Below, one piece after another: positions 4,737-38,680 of a stretch of 64,000 bases of DNA. Source of the DNA: a virus (lineage: Duplodnaviria; Heunggongvirae; Uroviricota; Caudoviricetes); the IMG/VR virus record IMGVR_UViG_3300028887_000068, positions 64,001-128,000 of that record, one strand, 5' to 3'. Made by a program: the position numbers and the translations under genes. The notes under the pieces are model-generated. The model was not told where the DNA came from. It made no database searches and saw only the letters and a program-made list of their open reading frames with translations. Position 1 is the stretch's first letter. Each line of letters opens with the position of its first letter.

Positions 4737-6224
4737 CTAGAATTGCAGAATCTCAGACTTGTCTGTTTCAACATTGTCTGGGAAGAACTCTTCGGTTCCC
4801 GGATACTGGGTCTTATCAAAGAACAGCCCATCCGTCTTGAAGAACGGAGTGAAGCCGAACGTGATACCCGGATCACTAGCAGAAGCCTTGGAGAACCCGA
4901 TATTACCCTTGTAAGATGGGTTAATACCTCTGAGACGAGTCGGAACAGAGTCTGAAGAAATACCTTGAGGGCCACCTTGAGTTCCACAGAGAGCTGCTCC
5001 AAAGAGGTCAAGAGTGTTGACCACCGTAGAGTATCTGAGAAGCTCAGAAGTGATGAGTGCCTTCGTGCAGATGTTCTTCTTGATACCGCCGAACGCACTC
5101 TCAAGTGTCTTTATCGTCACCTGTCTGCAGTTGATGATACGATAAGTCTCAGAAGAGAGTTTCTTAATGAGAGGATAAAGGACATACTCCCACAATCTGA
5201 TTCTCTTATTCTGAATCTCTGTAGAGTCGATTCCATTCAGGATATCGAACTCGCTACAGATCCAACGAGTCAATGTAAAGATATTTTTCTTGTCTCTTTC
5301 CGGGATCTTGGCAAGATTCGCTCTTGTAGAGCTATCCAAGATTCTCTGGAAGCTTACAGACACCTTCTCTGCCTTACGGAGTGCTGCATCATTGCCACTT
5401 GTAAACTGTTTGCCAAGCTGCAGATTCCAGAATCCAACGTTCTTAAGTTCTTCAACAGTGTTCGCCTTGGATGACAGAATTGCCGAGAGAATGTTGCCAA
5501 TCACCCACGGTTCTTGCTTAGCAAATTCAGTATCAACCCATACCGCAATGTCTTTTCCAAACAGGAACTTCATTGCCCCAGTAGCTTCCACAGGTTCTTT
5601 TGCACTTGTGAAATCTATCTTGTCTTCAGCCGCCAAGAACTTGATGGTCTCATCGAATCCTAAGATACTGAAGTAGTATAGAGTGATCGGAATTTCCTTA
5701 CGGAACGCACGGATAGTGTGGCTCACGAACTCTACTTCTTGGTCATCAGAGTTCACGAACACTTCACGATGTCTTGTCATTGTAAACGGCATGAGCATAG
5801 TCTTCAATCCAACTACACCCGGTCTTACCGGATATACACCTGCATCGACAAGTTGCAGGATGCTGAAGTATCTGGATCCATCCAGCAAGAAGAAGTACTT
5901 CTCAACCAGTCTTGGCAACATGGCTTCGATCGTAACATCTCTTTCAACAATCTTTGTTGAGCCTTCATCCGGAGCTTTAAGCCTCAGTGTAATTCTTGCC
6001 ATCGAGTGACGGCTTTCTTCAATGGTGTGCAAATGCGGAATCTTTGTTTCGTCATCTTCCACAGATACGTCAATCACTTCAACATGACCTGTCGAAGTTG
6101 TTGCCATAGCTATGGATCTCAAGATTCCTTCGAGAGATTCTTCTTCTCTTACGGTCTTGAACGAATCCGAGAACTTTTCTGGATTCGTCTTTTGGTACTG
6201 AGCGTACCATTCCTCATAGTACAT
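4737..6224 (-). CDS. Phage multisubunit RNA polymerase beta subunit, N-terminal half (probably non-virion RNAP)
   Basis: YFFLLDGSRYFSILQLVD and GGPQGI...RGINPSYKGNIGFSKASASDPGITFGFTPF match split beta N-terminal subunits of phiKZ/AR9-type RNAPs; AAGGAG SD. Confidence 0.8.
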   Translation of the reverse strand: MYYEEWYAQYQKTNPEKFSDSFKTVREEESLEGILRSIAMATTSTGHVEVIDVSVEDDETKIPHLHTIEESRHSMARITLRLKAPDEGSTKIVERDVTIEAMLPRLVEKYFFLLDGSRYFSILQLVDAGVYPVRPGVVGLKTMLMPFTMTRHREVFVNSDDQEVEFVSHTIRAFRKEIPITLYYFSILGFDETIKFLAAEDKIDFTSAKEPVEATGAMKFLFGKDIAVWVDTEFAKQEPWVIGNILSAILSSKANTVEELKNVGFWNLQLGKQFTSGNDAALRKAEKVSVSFQRILDSSTRANLAKIPERDKKNIFTLTRWICSEFDILNGIDSTEIQNKRIRLWEYVLYPLIKKLSSETYRIINCRQVTIKTLESAFGGIKKNICTKALITSELLRYSTVVNTLDLFGAALCGTQGGPQGISSDSVPTRLRGINPSYKGNIGFSKASASDPGITFGFTPFFKTDGLFFDKTQYPGTEEFFPDNVETDKSEILQF

Positions 6225-6286
6225 ACTTTTTCTCCTTGAAAAGTATTTGTGCTATATCTTTATATGTTATAATAAGTTCAGCCGTG

Positions 6287-6427
6287 CTAGCCTTCTCTAT
6301 CGATAACATCCTGCAATGTTTCGCATGGTTTTGTTTCATCTCTGCGCTTTCGAGAAGCACAAATGAGACCCATGAAGAAGCCGAAAACATACACTACACA
6401 AGCGAGAAAAATTACTAAGACAACCAT
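6287..6427 (-). CDS. Small membrane protein (46 aa)
   Basis: AAGGAG SD; MVVLVIFLACVVYVFGFFMGLICASRKRRDETKPCETLQDVIDREG*. Confidence 0.6.
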   Translation of the reverse strand: MVVLVIFLACVVYVFGFFMGLICASRKRRDETKPCETLQDVIDREG

Positions 6428-7528: not shown

Positions 7529-7597
7529 ATTGATCCTCTTTGGTTAGAAAAAAATGAGTACCCTGAGAAGGATTCGAACCTTCGACCTACTGCTTAG

Positions 7598-8203
7598 CTT
7601 GCTGCACTATATTTCTATAGCCATTGCTGTTGCAGTCTGGGCCATGTCTTAGCCATTTCAGGCTGGATGCGTATGGTCTCTACGGTTCCTGTATATCGAC
7701 AGTTACCTCGGCGTTGTCGAGAATAGACTTTTGGTATATTCTTACGATGTTCACCGATATAGCATCCTGCACTTTCTGTGTTAAACCATGAAGCTGTATT
7801 TCTCTTGCAAATTTTCCATTGCATGATCTTGAACAGCAGGTATACGAGAATTTTCCCTTCTTTACCAAGAAAGTTTCTCTTTTTCTTCTGGTAAATCTTT
7901 TATTACAGCAAGGACAAATCAAATCAACCATAGTGATACCACGCTTTTGCATATGGTACCTAACATGTTCCTCGTTTGTCATTACCTGAAGGTTCTCTAT
8001 TCTGTTATCCTTTTTGTTCTCGTTCTTGTGGTGTACAACTTCATTCTTATCAAGAAGACGTCCTAGAAAATTCTCCATCACAACTCGGTGCATGAAAACA
8101 TATCCAAGCTTTGTTGCGAAAGGATGTTCCGGGACAAGGGCATAATCGTATTCTCCCTTCGATATTTTCTTCCTAATATTCCACATAAAGGCTCCAAAAA
8201 TAA
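7598..8203 (-). mobile_element. Group I intron (606 nt) in the tRNA anticodon (position 34/35)
   Basis: 5' exon ends in U and the intron ends in G. P3 GGATGC/GCATCC; P4 TCGGT/GCCGA; J6/7-P7 CGTAGAGACCATACG; P8 AGCC/GGCT; J8/7-P7' TAAGACATGGCCCAGACTGCA. Confidence 0.88.
7680..8186 (-). CDS. Intron-encoded HNH homing endonuclease
   Basis: HRVVMENFLGRLL..NEVVHHKNENKKDNRIENL HNH motif plus C-terminal CPCC...CCSRSC zinc-binding region; GGAG SD 5 nt before the ATG. Confidence 0.9.
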   Translation of the reverse strand: MWNIRKKISKGEYDYALVPEHPFATKLGYVFMHRVVMENFLGRLLDKNEVVHHKNENKKDNRIENLQVMTNEEHVRYHMQKRGITMVDLICPCCNKRFTRRKRETFLVKKGKFSYTCCSRSCNGKFAREIQLHGLTQKVQDAISVNIVRIYQKSILDNAEVTVDIQEP

Positions 8204-8243
8204 AAGGCAGTTGCTCTATCCATCTGAGCTATCAGGGCCAGTC

Positions 8244-8256
8244 TCATCTTTAAGTT
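8244..8256 (-). promoter_or_regulatory. Putative late promoter of tRNA-Arg
   Basis: AACTTAAAGATGA; predicted +1 G lies 7 nt before the tRNA 5' end. Confidence 0.7.
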
Positions 8257-8259
8257 AAG

Positions 8260-9240
8260 AGGATAAAGGAATACGGCAGCGTACATTGCCGTATCTAGTA
8301 TTTTCATACAGTAATATGGGTAAACTCAAAAAACTCCCCTAGCGTACATTAGGGGAGAGAACCTATAAACTACCGGACGTATGAGCAACCGTCCAGTGAG
8401 GCACAGAAATTCAAAAATGCCCTGTCAGCGTACTTTGACAGGGCGGTATGGAGTTGTTGTTCTGAACGAACAAGATCAATTAGATCGCCAGCCGAAAAAT
8501 CCTATTAGCAGAACCTAGGGCTTTGCGTATGTCTACGGCTTGCTAAAAGCACAAAGCGTTGTAGGATTTACCTGCTAATAAGACCGCTGTTTACTTAGGA
8601 ACCTAGCAGCTTAGAAGATTGACCAAGTTATGCACTCGGATGTAGGATTTACCCTAGTAAACAAGTCGGATGAGCAAAATTCTGGGCAGGACTGCCATAG
8701 TACGTACTTCCCAATCCGAAGATCAGGCATTTTGCCGTCCCTCTCGAAGCGTTTCCTAGGCCGCAACGAGACATCGCTTTTCTTTTTACGACATCACTGT
8801 AGACGTCAGATCAGCCGATGGCCCCAAATTCAACTCTCTCCCCCAATGGCTAATCAAGGGGAGAGAGCCTTAACCATCAACATTCTTCACAGCCGTGCGA
8901 ATTACGGAATGTAAATTACGACCAGCGAAGAATATTGTCTCAGGAGGTAAAATTCTTCCCGCTACAGGCAGGGAGGCAAGTAGCAGGAAAGGTTGGTGTG
9001 TGGAGCCAACCTCGTGTGATCTTTGCCGTGTTGTAGCAAAGTGTTAAACTTAAGGAATTCCCGACATGAGCCAAGATCCACATCGGGAACTCCTTTGGCA
9101 GTCAAGGAGACTGGTATGACTGTACCAGGCACAGAACAAATGAAACTGTGCAGACCGCCTAAAAGGATCATAGAAACTGTTGAAAGGAGGGAAGCGGTGC
9201 TTCCCTCCTACACAACATCAGGTATACATCATTATGATTG
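8260..9240 (-). ncRNA. Candidate large structured ncRNA (about 0.8-1 kb)
   Basis: No credible ORF between groEL and the tRNA; more than 10 strong stems, a duplicated internal-loop module (8503-8580 and 8589-8662) and three terminator-like hairpins at the minus-strand 3' end. Confidence 0.6.
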
Positions 9241-9286
9241 TTTTATAATCATAATTACATGGCTTTATATACTATCATCTTTTTGC

Positions 9287-11038
9287 CTAGCTGAGTCTAG
9301 GACAGAAGAGGAAGCCATTGGATGTAACGATAATAGACACCATAGACAGAGCTTCGGAAATGATTTCCTTATCCGTTCTTGCGGAGTTCAGAACTTCTGT
9401 AGTTTCGATACTGTCAATGTTGCCCTTGCGGATATTCATAATCTGACGATTCTTGAATAGATCTTCTACTTGCTTCGTATCAAGCATAGAGCAACGTGCA
9501 AATACTTTGACGAAAGCCGTACGGATGATTTCGACAAGCTTTTCCACCACATCCAAGATAAGCGGAGAGCCTTCGACAGAATCAAGAGCTGCTTCTGCGA
9601 TAGCCTTCTTACGAGCTTCGTCCGACAGAATAATCGGAACAATGGAGTTACCTGCTGCTACTACACCGAACTGGAGAGCAGACTTGCAGGACAACACAGC
9701 GTCTTCCATGAGATCTGCGAACGAGCCGATAGCAGCTTGAGACGGGCCACCAACGGTAATCACAGCAGAGTAAGCACAGAGACGACCGAAGCGAACCTTG
9801 AGAGCGCCAAGCTCAGAATCAAAGTCGATATGGCCAGATTCGTTAGAGAGCTTTTCGATCTTTTCAAGGAGCATCTGCTTGAGTTCAGAGTATTCCTTCG
9901 TACCAACGCCACGACCTTCAAAGAACGTAGCAGACATGTCCGTTACAACGACACGCTTTGCGAACCCAAGACGATACATGAGACGAGTCGTATCGATCAT
10001 TCCGCGATCAAACACAGTCTTGTCAAGGTTTTCCACCTTGGTCAAGTATTCAATCGGATGAGAATCGGTGTATGTCGCAATGTCGCTGAAATGGAGCTTA
10101 CCCTGAGAAGAGCTTGTAGCATGAGAGCATAAGCAAATGGGCATCTTGTTCTTCGAACGGATGATGTTTTCCTTAGCGAACTGGATAACATCCGGCGTAT
10201 AGTTGTTAGCAATGACGAGAAGAGAACCGCCAATGTCGCCAACGATAGCATTAATGATATCTGCAAGGTTCTTGATTTCCGTCGTTCCAAGAACACCGTC
10301 ATACATGAGAATATAGGTATTCGTCAGTTCAACGTACTTCTTGTCATCATTCTTAACATTGCAGAAGCAGTCATCGACGTATCCACGATACATTTCGAAA
10401 CCACTCTTGTAGTCAACAACAGTGTTCGGACGGTCGCCACGCTGAATATTCACAACACCGAACTTGCCCACTTTCTTGTAGACTTCCGTAATGAGATCAG
10501 CAGCTTCCACATTGTTGTTCGTAGAAGTGATAGCGACATTACGAATCTTGTTCCAGTCTTCTTCCTTAGCTTCATCAACGAAGTATGTTTCCTTCTTGAT
10601 TTCGCCCTGAATTTGCTTGGAGATAGCTTCAAGCATACGGACGATATCGCCACGATAAAGGTATGGGAATTCTTCAAGGAACTTCTTGAGATTGTTAGCA
10701 ATTTCGGATGCGCAGATTACGGCAGAGGTAGAACCATCACCGACAGTACGGACGAGACGCAAGCTAGAACGCTTAACGAATTCCAAGACCACTCGTTCAA
10801 GGTCATTCGGAGAAGTGAGAGATCTGAGAATGGTGTAACCGTCCTTGCTTACCTTATGGCGAAGCTGGACATCTTCAATGATAGTGGTAGAACCCTTCGG
10901 GCCAAAGGATTTGCCAATGATATTAGCGATTTCAGACAGGATTTCCGTAAGCGGAAGATTCTGGTATGAGTTAAACATCGGCTTGTATTCTTTGCTTTCT
11001 CCGCGAATTCCTTCCCACGGATCACGTTCATTCGTCAT
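9287..11038 (-). CDS. groEL: Phage GroEL-like chaperonin
   Basis: SFGPKG, VSKDGYTIL, VGDGSTSAVI (GDGTT motif), LKVRFGRL, EDAVLSCKSALQFGVVAAG. Confidence 0.93.
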   Translation of the reverse strand: MTNERDPWEGIRGESKEYKPMFNSYQNLPLTEILSEIANIIGKSFGPKGSTTIIEDVQLRHKVSKDGYTILRSLTSPNDLERVVLEFVKRSSLRLVRTVGDGSTSAVICASEIANNLKKFLEEFPYLYRGDIVRMLEAISKQIQGEIKKETYFVDEAKEEDWNKIRNVAITSTNNNVEAADLITEVYKKVGKFGVVNIQRGDRPNTVVDYKSGFEMYRGYVDDCFCNVKNDDKKYVELTNTYILMYDGVLGTTEIKNLADIINAIVGDIGGSLLVIANNYTPDVIQFAKENIIRSKNKMPICLCSHATSSSQGKLHFSDIATYTDSHPIEYLTKVENLDKTVFDRGMIDTTRLMYRLGFAKRVVVTDMSATFFEGRGVGTKEYSELKQMLLEKIEKLSNESGHIDFDSELGALKVRFGRLCAYSAVITVGGPSQAAIGSFADLMEDAVLSCKSALQFGVVAAGNSIVPIILSDEARKKAIAEAALDSVEGSPLILDVVEKLVEIIRTAFVKVFARCSMLDTKQVEDLFKNRQIMNIRKGNIDSIETTEVLNSARTDKEIISEALSMVSIIVTSNGFLFCPRLS

Positions 11039-32683: not shown

Positions 32684-32755
32684 TTTAATGTAGTTTAGCG
32701 GTAAAACAGCCGCCCTCATTGGGCGGCAGTCATGGGTTCGAATCCCATCACTTTT
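32684..32755 (+). pseudogene. Degenerate tRNA / tRNA-like element
   Basis: Intact D arm (GTTT/AAAC) and T arm (ATGGG TTCGAAT CCCAT), GCCGC/GCGGC anticodon stem with a 9-nt loop, acceptor stem with only 3 pairs. Confidence 0.6.
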
Positions 32756-37341: not shown

Positions 37342-37946
37342 TAGTAATCCTCGCTTGGGATTTCATCCCAGTTAACTTCAGCACGAAATTCACGATATGC
37401 AGAATCCAAGTTAGCAATCTGCATGAGGTCATAGAGCTTGCTAATCTGAACCGTTCCGATGAAGACACGGTTTTCGTAAGTGCCATAACACATCCTGTCA
37501 TCGTTGGAATTCGGATGTGTGCTCGGGTTTCCGTTAGCATCCTGAGCACGGATCTTGAGTCTGTCCGTGTAGTTATCCGGAATCTTCATTGCGAACGAGT
37601 GGATTTCAAGACTGCTATCTGCTGCCTTAAGCTTTTCCATCGTGGCGGCATCGAAGATATACTTACGACGAGACTTGATAGCCATGCACGGAACAATGGG
37701 CTTATGCAGATAGAAGATGATACGCTTATCAGACGGACTAAGCTTGATTTCCTTGACGTACGGATTGTGCGACAGATCCGTTGCCAACAAAGCAGATACG
37801 AATTCAGTAATACGAACGTTAGAGGAAACCGAAACGTTAGCAGTCGGCAATGGCGGTTGTTTCAGGTCAATATTGCACAGAGACTTTTCTCTTGTCTCTA
37901 TCGTCATCATAGACTTAGGCAGAGTGAGATTATCAAATGATTTCAT
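37341..37946 (-). CDS. Prokaryotic E2-like (UBC-fold) conjugating enzyme
   Basis: THPNSNDDRMCYG (HPN...C). True start M110 of the listed ORF (GGAG SD); TAATG-coupled to E1. Confidence 0.7.
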   Translation of the reverse strand: MKSFDNLTLPKSMMTIETREKSLCNIDLKQPPLPTANVSVSSNVRITEFVSALLATDLSHNPYVKEIKLSPSDKRIIFYLHKPIVPCMAIKSRRKYIFDAATMEKLKAADSSLEIHSFAMKIPDNYTDRLKIRAQDANGNPSTHPNSNDDRMCYGTYENRVFIGTVQISKLYDLMQIANLDSAYREFRAEVNWDEIPSEDY

Positions 37947-38583
37947 CGAAGTTTTCTCCGTTGCTAAGAATGAAACCTTTACCTTCCTTTTCGGAAGCCA
38001 TGTCAAAAATCTTTTCACTGACCGTAAGATAGACAGCCAACAAAGCGAACATGAACAGATGCTCACCTCCCTGACCATGACCGTTGGCGAAGCTAGTACC
38101 CCAGTGGTCAAAGCGAGGAACCTTAAACTTGTTGAACACTTCATTCGACGGTGCCGTCGGAGACCCATAGAAGAATCCGTAGGAGTTCTTCCCACAGTAG
38201 ATGTTAAGGACTTTGTAATCCGGCATATACTGGAACGAACTTTCGATGTCGTTATAGACACCAGCATCGACAATCGGATCTACCCAGATAAACACTTCCG
38301 GGCGTTCATTATGGATGTACGTCTTGTAACTCTGTCTTTGCGAAGACGAGGTAGAATACGCAAATTCCTTGATAAATGGATTCACGTCATGATAATGAAT
38401 GCCAGTAGCAGTGTTAGAAGTAAATATGGTCTGAACACCACTGCGCATAAGGAATTTGAAGATTTCCTTTTCAAGATCTTTCCCAAAGTCAGAATTATTA
38501 CTAACGAGGAGAGCGACTGTCCCCGGAATCCTCAGCCCTTCACACAAGCGTGTGCGGTCAAAGATGTTTCGTATGTTTTCCAT
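37933..38583 (-). CDS. Hypothetical protein, possibly an inactive Rossmann/E1-like partner
   Basis: 216 aa with an alpha/beta pattern (VALLV..SDFGKDLEKEI..L..SGV; VFIWVD); first gene of the operon. Confidence 0.65.
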   Translation of the reverse strand: MENIRNIFDRTRLCEGLRIPGTVALLVSNNSDFGKDLEKEIFKFLMRSGVQTIFTSNTATGIHYHDVNPFIKEFAYSTSSSQRQSYKTYIHNERPEVFIWVDPIVDAGVYNDIESSFQYMPDYKVLNIYCGKNSYGFFYGSPTAPSNEVFNKFKVPRFDHWGTSFANGHGQGGEHLFMFALLAVYLTVSEKIFDMASEKEGKGFILSNGENFDEII

Positions 38584-38680
38584 TTTTCCATTCCTTTATG
38601 GTTAAGGTCTGTTTTTTATATAATGCTCAAAATGAAGTAAAGAGTAAACTAATGATTGAATACTTTAAACGAGGTTTATC

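Follow-up and report, generated by a model that had tools for sequence, protein, structure and literature searches.

A conserved, clade-restricted RNA behind groEL in a jumbo phage of the cattle gut, with exposed words that match phage translation start signals

Long, abundant RNAs encoded beside tRNA genes recur in lytic phages such as phage K and ICP1, and to our knowledge a function has been assigned to almost none of them. This study deals with a non-coding RNA locus of an uncultured giant (jumbo) phage from cattle gut (IMG/VR record IMGVR_UViG_3300028887_000068). The analysed stretch of 64,000 nucleotides (nt), referred to as the window, comprises bases 64001-128000 of the 242,489-base phage record, and the locus lies on its minus strand between a groEL-like gene and an intron-split tRNA-Arg gene. 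The RNA, folded and about 430-750 nt long, is real, conserved, expressed and uncatalogued; it is restricted to one phage clade, and the locus that carries it is composite.

Among the closest described systems, RNAIII of Staphylococcus aureus, RsaE and the streptococcal csRNAs expose C/U-rich words that complement the Shine-Dalgarno (SD) sequence and, in the csRNAs, also the start codon (PMC4152353). The long non-coding RNA (lncRNA) of the lytic phage ICP1 is abundant and forms chimeras with many transcripts, its mechanism being undescribed, and SviR of PLE has separate seeds near leaders (10.1101/2022.04.08.487710). With GOLLD- and ROOL-like RNAs the locus shares its phage origin, its position near a tRNA and its length of several hundred nt. 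A first-pass annotation, made from the DNA letters alone, had considered membership of GOLLD, ROOL, OLE, RNase P or transfer-messenger RNA (tmRNA), which was not confirmed: a full Rfam cmscan, at gathering thresholds and at E <= 10, matched no family at the locus, including OLE, RNase P and tmRNA. The GOLLD 3' domain model (RF02032) gave no match at the locus at E <= 10 and none in four relatives, and the 574-position ROOL model (RF03087) gave none in the full cmscan at E <= 10 or in a genome search run without a positive control. A true tmRNA occurs in relatives only, beside the modules described below. Homology to Cuckoo RNAs, RNAIII, RsaE or csRNAs was likewise not found, as there was no Rfam match, no repeated CCUCCUCCC loops were present and the loops of the locus differ from each other. 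Within the limits of the literature covered, no description of the RNA was found. What it does have in common with anti-SD RNAs is a set of conserved, predicted-unpaired words complementary to ribosome-binding sites.

The open reading frame (ORF)-poor gap of about 1 kb that had first drawn attention in this gene-dense genome was borne out: 8187-9022 is among just three stretches of the 242-kb genome that run for at least 500 nt with no ORF of 100 codons, and the five strong stems singled out there are all in place. An opposite-strand ORF (9023-9460) overlaps the 5' part of the stretch and is not conserved. Compared with shuffles, the fold of 8300-9260 reached z = -7.5 on the minus and z = -6.6 on the plus strand, and that of the core (9256-8790) z = -11. 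Homologs were gathered by following relatives of the GroEL protein, which resulted in six lineages: A (window, L007, L102, L103), B (L003, L104, L106), C (L001), D (L099), E (L100, L107, L115) and F (L101, L108, L190). In lineages A-E, with GroEL identities of 71-97%, an ORF-free island follows groEL, the upstream neighbour of the core in every core-bearing lineage, and opens with a common promoter-like ATATAAA. The order of the core elements is constant in these five lineages (three-way junction, P4 hairpin, AC-rich loop, C/U-loop hairpin, P8/P9 pocket, P10), and the conserved 5' core covers about 430 nt (approximately 9256-8830). The parts of the core, all on the minus strand, are as follows.

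9263..9277, minus strand: promoter-like motif with an ATATAAA core, immediately after the groEL stop; invariant in alignment A1, precedes many phage genes
9185..9255, minus strand: variable 5' hairpins; UGUUGUG at 9217-9211 is the putative partner of the AC-rich loop (pseudoknot 1)
9096..9161, minus strand: three-way junction P1/P2/P3 with unpaired UCUCCUU (9110-9104), complement of the phage's commonest SD 7-mer
9052..9095, minus strand: P4 hairpin, 13-18 base pairs (bp) in all lineages, with an invariant UCUUGGC loop
8956..9041, minus strand: P5-P7 hairpins, with the AC-rich loop at 9035-9028 and a C/U-rich loop at 8975-8970
8868..8951, minus strand: P8/P9 pocket, made of ACCUCCU (8948-8942, anti-SD) and AUGGUUAAGG (8877-8868) with a variable stem between them; invariant in alignments A1 and A5
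8832..8869, minus strand: P10 hairpin, the end of the conserved core; loop with an anti-start-codon word in lineages A and B

The core contains one three-way junction and two putative pseudoknots, and the 3' half of the stretch is not conserved. Mostly, the fold is a chain of hairpin domains and not a deeply nested, ornate one. The conserved pairing that the first-pass annotation had called for is present, with covarying helices in five diverged lineages: 43 of 45 cells are paired in helix P1, where six of nine columns changed on both sides, and all 30 cells are paired in P2, where all six columns are double-changed. RNAalifold found double changes in 12 of 22 and 16 of 36 pairs. The pair tables were anchored and registered by hand on five lineages, D in P4 and E in P9 not being counted, and helix support rests on these tables because the long-hairpin null is lax (103/300). 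A model built without lineage C (R1) found the C core as the only match in its 235-kb genome (E 4e-4 to 5e-4). Core z-scores range from -6.5 to -11 across the lineages, and the minus strand folds clearly better than the plus strand in A, B and E. With five lineages and hand registration, the evidence is good, though not R-scape-grade.

The pairing of pseudoknot 1, between the UG-rich segment and the AC-rich loop, is possible in six lineages, with no more than 5 bp in E, and in lineage B the partner segment changes together with the loop. In putative pseudoknot 2, the P4 loop can pair with 8875-8868 in five lineages via tandem G.U pairs, and loop and partner lengthen together in lineage C. Neither of the two anti-SD words has a partner within the RNA that is conserved. 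A further word, CUAUGAUCC, occurs at 9165-9173 (minus strand) of the window and at genome positions 32709, 123183, 145594 and 240915, in intergenic sites after U-rich tracts, and also in relatives.

Lineage F has only the AC-loop and C/U-loop of the core elements. It has a tRNA-like element with an aberrant anticodon arm (L101 3624-3704; L108 approximately 6210-6290; 23 bits with the Rfam tRNA model), followed by a hairpin chain with the AC-rich and C/U loops common to the core. No island was present at the groEL position of phages with GroEL identity of 51% or less. A blastn search against 50,697 annotated phages gave no match, motif scans of IMG/VR and GTDB returned the same phage clade only, other matches failing a second-motif screen, and models R1 and R2 gave no convincing match on 25-26 more distant phage records, many of them fragments.

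Part of the stretch is contained in 24 RNA runs of ten studies, bovine gut metagenomes, four of which were chosen for containing it and mapped. Each yielded one contig, at 8499-9214, 8495-9237, 8534-9227 and, without the modules, 8214-9283; cover of groEL was scattered or nil, with little or none in three of the four runs. The locus is thus covered by RNA-library contigs in four cattle-gut studies; strand, ends and level cannot be read from them. Two contigs end at 8495-8499, where the tmRNA of relatives begins, a weak hint of a 3' end. A contig of run X1 skips 8475-8675, that is, both modules, and since a direct repeat flanks the modules in L102, a strain deletion is likelier than RNA excision. 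Minus-strand transcription is suggested by the orientation of promoter, tRNA and tmRNA together with the folding, and the ATATAAA motif probably acts as a phage promoter.

The alignment contains four invariant single-stranded blocks, three of which, read as reverse complements, give words that are overrepresented in the leaders of this phage. The commonest leader words are the SD and CUUAACCA just upstream of it. The junction word complements the top SD 7-mer, present in 37 leaders against 1.3 expected, and the 5' word of P8 complements AGGAGGU (10 leaders against 0.3). The 3' word of P8, AUGGUUAAGG at 8877-8868, is the complement of the upstream element CUUAACCA, found in 8 leaders against 0.45 expected and in 15 against 0.5 in G001. 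Its exact 10-mer complement has three other genomic copies, all between a promoter-like motif and an SD; one of these leaders heads a 216-codon gene at 37933-38606 (minus strand) of the window. Complements of leader-enriched 7-mers numbered 22 in the core against 7.2 +/- 3.6 in dinucleotide shuffles (p 0.002), with an excess in lineages B-E as well (p 0.008-0.09) and none in the 3' half, the tmRNA or the phage's other 540-nt RNA. Matches are antisense rather than sense (22 vs 9), and the order of the P8 words fits the upstream word plus SD in 11 leaders, as opposed to one with the order swapped.

Co-folding with P8/P9 favoured leaders over coding windows (p 3e-8) and over shuffled leaders (p 2e-6), the top match using both halves; -9 kcal/mol was reached for 14% of leaders, compared with 3% of coding windows. 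Eleven other domains that were co-folded showed no leader preference. The leader word lies mostly 17-22 nt before the start codon, at a variable distance from promoters, which led us to discard a 6S-like promoter mimic. The P4 loop as an anti-mRNA seed was also rejected, its complement not being enriched near starts. The loop repeats the mRNA word with G substitutions and, by computation, binds more weakly than a true target, the duplex energies being -12.6 kcal/mol for the target, -6 to -9 kcal/mol for P4 and -2.7 kcal/mol for local pairing. In one genome pair, the A and T variants of the SD stand at 37:15 in one genome and at 26:26 in the other, whose RNA has the matching change (p 0.044). 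Eight of the 16 best-matching leaders stand behind the same promoter-like motif as the RNA, compared with 29 of 237 (p 5e-4), so that they and the RNA are probably co-expressed.

Because its exposed conserved words complement the start signals of phage translation, the RNA probably binds mRNAs and controls protein synthesis. We favour, with a probability of roughly one half, the reading that the core is a trans-acting, multi-arm regulator directed against ribosome-binding sites in the manner of RNAIII, csRNAs and Cuckoo RNAs. The RNA operon would be transcribed from the phage promoter behind groEL and would expose two kinds of arm, the anti-SD word in the three-way junction and the two-part P8/P9 pocket, whose halves would pair with a leader of the form CUUAACCA, a few nt, AGGAG, the variable P9 stem being looped out as a junction. 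At rest, the seed for the upstream word is probably docked on the P4 loop by the weaker G.U pairs of pseudoknot 2, a lid suggested by the weaker binding of this loop to the P8 3' word. The anti-SD half would be left free as a toehold, and a matching mRNA would displace the lid. The likeliest outcome would be that 30S loading is blocked for some mRNAs of the phage and possibly of the host.

Several points weigh against this proposal. At 7-10 nt the words are short, and loops rich in pyrimidines look like anti-SD words through their composition. A control with P8/P9 reversed likewise shows a weak preference for leaders (p 0.007), reaching -9 kcal/mol in only 2.5%, and the shuffled-leader test is borderline in lineage C (p 0.056). 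The three-way junction showed no net leader preference in co-folding, and the upstream-word flank test between two full genomes was not significant (p 0.17-0.38). Covariation of seed and target goes in the predicted direction, but in one genome pair only, and pseudoknot 2 alone could explain two of the invariant blocks. The limits of the contigs given above also count here, along with the preselection of the runs for carrying the stretch.

The remainder of the locus and its neighbours consist of the following features.

9287..11038, minus strand: groEL-like chaperonin gene (Pfam PF00118, phrog_5725; synteny)
8676..8830, minus strand: variable domain X, 62% identical between A and B, which share a hairpin with the palindromic loop CCUAGG (8761-8752), seen by inspection
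8589..8662, minus strand: module 1, whose homologue in lineage F is the single module in front of the tmRNA
8503..8580, minus strand: module 2; the tmRNA starts about 10 nt after it in L003, L007, L103, L104 and L106 and is deleted in the window genome
8270..8444, minus strand: three hairpins with differing stems and the common 8-nt loop AWGUACGC, with U runs after two of them
7558..8238, minus strand: tRNA-Arg(UCU) interrupted by a group I intron, in which an HNH endonuclease gene lies at 7680-8186 (ARAGORN with introns; Pfam PF13392)

The tandem modules, the headline feature of the first-pass annotation, are both where it had placed them, and their shared repeat is beyond chance: a 13-nt exact repeat 81 nt apart, a length reached by 7 of 1000 shuffles, and 8 further nt repeated on the opposite strand of the loop. 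The internal architecture described for them holds less well, since the CCUA/UAGG inner stem of module 1 is degraded to 2-3 pairs in L102, L103 and L104; the invariant feature of this module is the sequence GGUAAAUCCUAC ... GGUUC, and RNAalifold favours a small local hairpin in the 5' word. The modules also lie outside the conserved RNA, as C, D and E have the core without modules and F has a module without the core. Two copies are present in A and B and one in F. A tmRNA gene directly follows in L003, L007, L103, L104, L106, L101 and L190; the window and L102 keep the modules and have lost the tmRNA, in the window genome apparently by deletion between short repeats, and L108, C, D and E have neither. 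Identity between A and B is 95% in the modules, 68% in the core and 62% in domain X, which points to exchange of the module cassette. The modules are a separate unit that travels with the tmRNA gene, probably as leader elements of its cassette that stayed behind when the tmRNA was deleted; a part in processing or folding the tmRNA precursor is a guess. The combination of module and tmRNA was searched for in IMG/VR and none was found.

Two invariant module words look like a T-arm split by the outer helix, and module 1 contains CUUCUAAGC, identical to the anticodon-loop region of the neighbouring tRNA-Arg, kept in L103 and L104 and altered in L102, L101 and L190. Permuted tRNAs or known small ribozymes were rejected as explanations of the modules, the inner part being too short and no consensus being visible by eye. 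A weak permuted-tmRNA match in L101 (E 0.01) spans the tRNA 3' exon and the real tmRNA and was treated as an artefact. The phage tmRNA genes (L104 6559-6924, L101 2782-3147) encode unusual tags ending AYAFRAAA. The loop-repeat hairpins number four in L102 and in the X1 and X2 contigs; their common loop contains the palindrome GUAC, and a different repeated loop (GCAGAUGUGCUGC) occurs at similar places in lineages C-E.

The adjacent tRNA-Arg(UCU) is real, 260 nt downstream of module 2, with the correction that it is intron-split. The intron is present in L101 and L190 and absent in L102-L104, and L100 has a group I intron without an ORF in this position. In L099, ARAGORN called a tRNA-Ile with an enlarged anticodon loop beside tRNA-Arg (4775-4848), and a second tRNA-like Rfam match of 40.5 bits, with no ARAGORN call, lies at 32689-32750 (plus strand) of the window. 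Genes near the locus include phage RNA polymerase and primase families. In the operon, the conserved core is followed by cassettes that can be exchanged, namely domain X, the modules with the tmRNA and the loop-repeat hairpins, and then by tRNA-Arg. A large, conserved, transcribed and uncatalogued RNA locus beside a tRNA was rightly recognised, but not one indivisible RNA; gaps of the 'giant RNA' type can be mosaics of swappable cassettes, including an undescribed module accompanying phage tmRNA genes.

Among the other explanations, it is possible, if doubtful, that the core, alone or together with the 3' cassettes, forms a structural and perhaps oligomerising RNA of the GOLLD, ROOL or OLE kind, its invariant loops making tertiary or intermolecular contacts and its match to leaders being incidental. 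The two putative long-range pseudoknots in all lineages, the joint extension of the P4 loop and its partner in lineage C, the palindromic loop of domain X, the single continuous contig of 710-740 nt in three studies and the position beside a tRNA, as in ROOL and GOLLD (PMC12286853), would all suit such an RNA. However, no helix closes the whole RNA, its 3' parts are swapped or lost between lineages, Rfam shows no similarity, the two anti-SD words lack a conserved internal partner, and tandem G.U pairs would not have to persist in five lineages if the pseudoknot were purely structural.

It seems improbable that the locus as a whole is a decoy or sponge, with a binding word on every hairpin, and is cut into several small RNAs; the molecules caught could be RNA-binding proteins of host or phage, anticodon nucleases or small RNAs of the host. 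A role of this kind would account for conserved loops repeated on unrelated stems (in the modules, the loop-repeat hairpins and the other loop of C-E) and for the varying number of copies; transcription together with tRNA and tmRNA would entail processing, and the strongest RNA run is a size-fractionated library. It leaves unexplained the fixed domain order and long-range pairings of the core and the antisense direction of its leader matches, and may well hold for the 3' cassettes. Quite unlikely is an RNA that pairs with leaders and activates, stabilises or localises mRNAs: the promoter-like motif shared with half of the best-matching leaders, and hence probable co-expression, speaks for it, but the pairing covers the SD itself, which blocks initiation in known cases (PMC4152353). 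That the conserved words serve small plus-strand genes as real translation signals, with the structure incidental, is hardly credible, as the 114-codon frame opened by an SD and ATG, annotated by gene callers in L102 and L103, shrinks to 9 codons in lineage B and lacks a start in C-E, while promoter, tRNA and tmRNA, and the better fold in A, B and E, are on the minus strand.

Returning to the regulator of ribosome-binding sites, the phage RNA would resemble RNAIII, RsaE and the csRNAs in carrying several arms with anti-SD words on one RNA (PMC4152353). Those RNAs are chromosomal, whereas this one belongs to a lytic jumbo phage, is similar to them in neither sequence nor model, and has a two-part pocket for the word upstream of the SD with a putative pseudoknot lid. 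The Cuckoo/CcsR RNAs of Alphaproteobacteria are likewise chains of hairpins in which the stems vary and the pyrimidine loops are conserved, but they consist of 2-4 hairpins with one repeated loop motif, while the motif of the phage RNA differs from domain to domain and the RNA has junctions and is several times longer (PMC4615179). As a long RNA of a lytic phage it recalls the ICP1 lncRNA and SviR of PLE. Size class, phage origin and tRNA-side position are shared with ROOL and GOLLD, and with ROOL also the gut and rumen habitat (PMC12286853, PMC12990946), in contrast to which there is no covariance-model match, the fold is chain-like rather than nested and multi-junction, and the 3' part is a mosaic. 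The likeness to the lncRNAs of phage K (PMC9241854) and to GOLLD and ROOL (PMC12286853) is one of size and position only. Tentatively, the RNA might stand for a new class, a large lytic-phage RNA with a pseudoknot-gated two-part pocket (anti-SD toehold and upstream leader word) for the mRNAs of its own phage, that acts as a multivalent switch or scaffold for start sites and is co-transcribed with swappable cassettes, tmRNA and tRNA. As the conserved words point to both named targets and a gating mechanism, the role of such RNAs becomes testable without culturing the phage.
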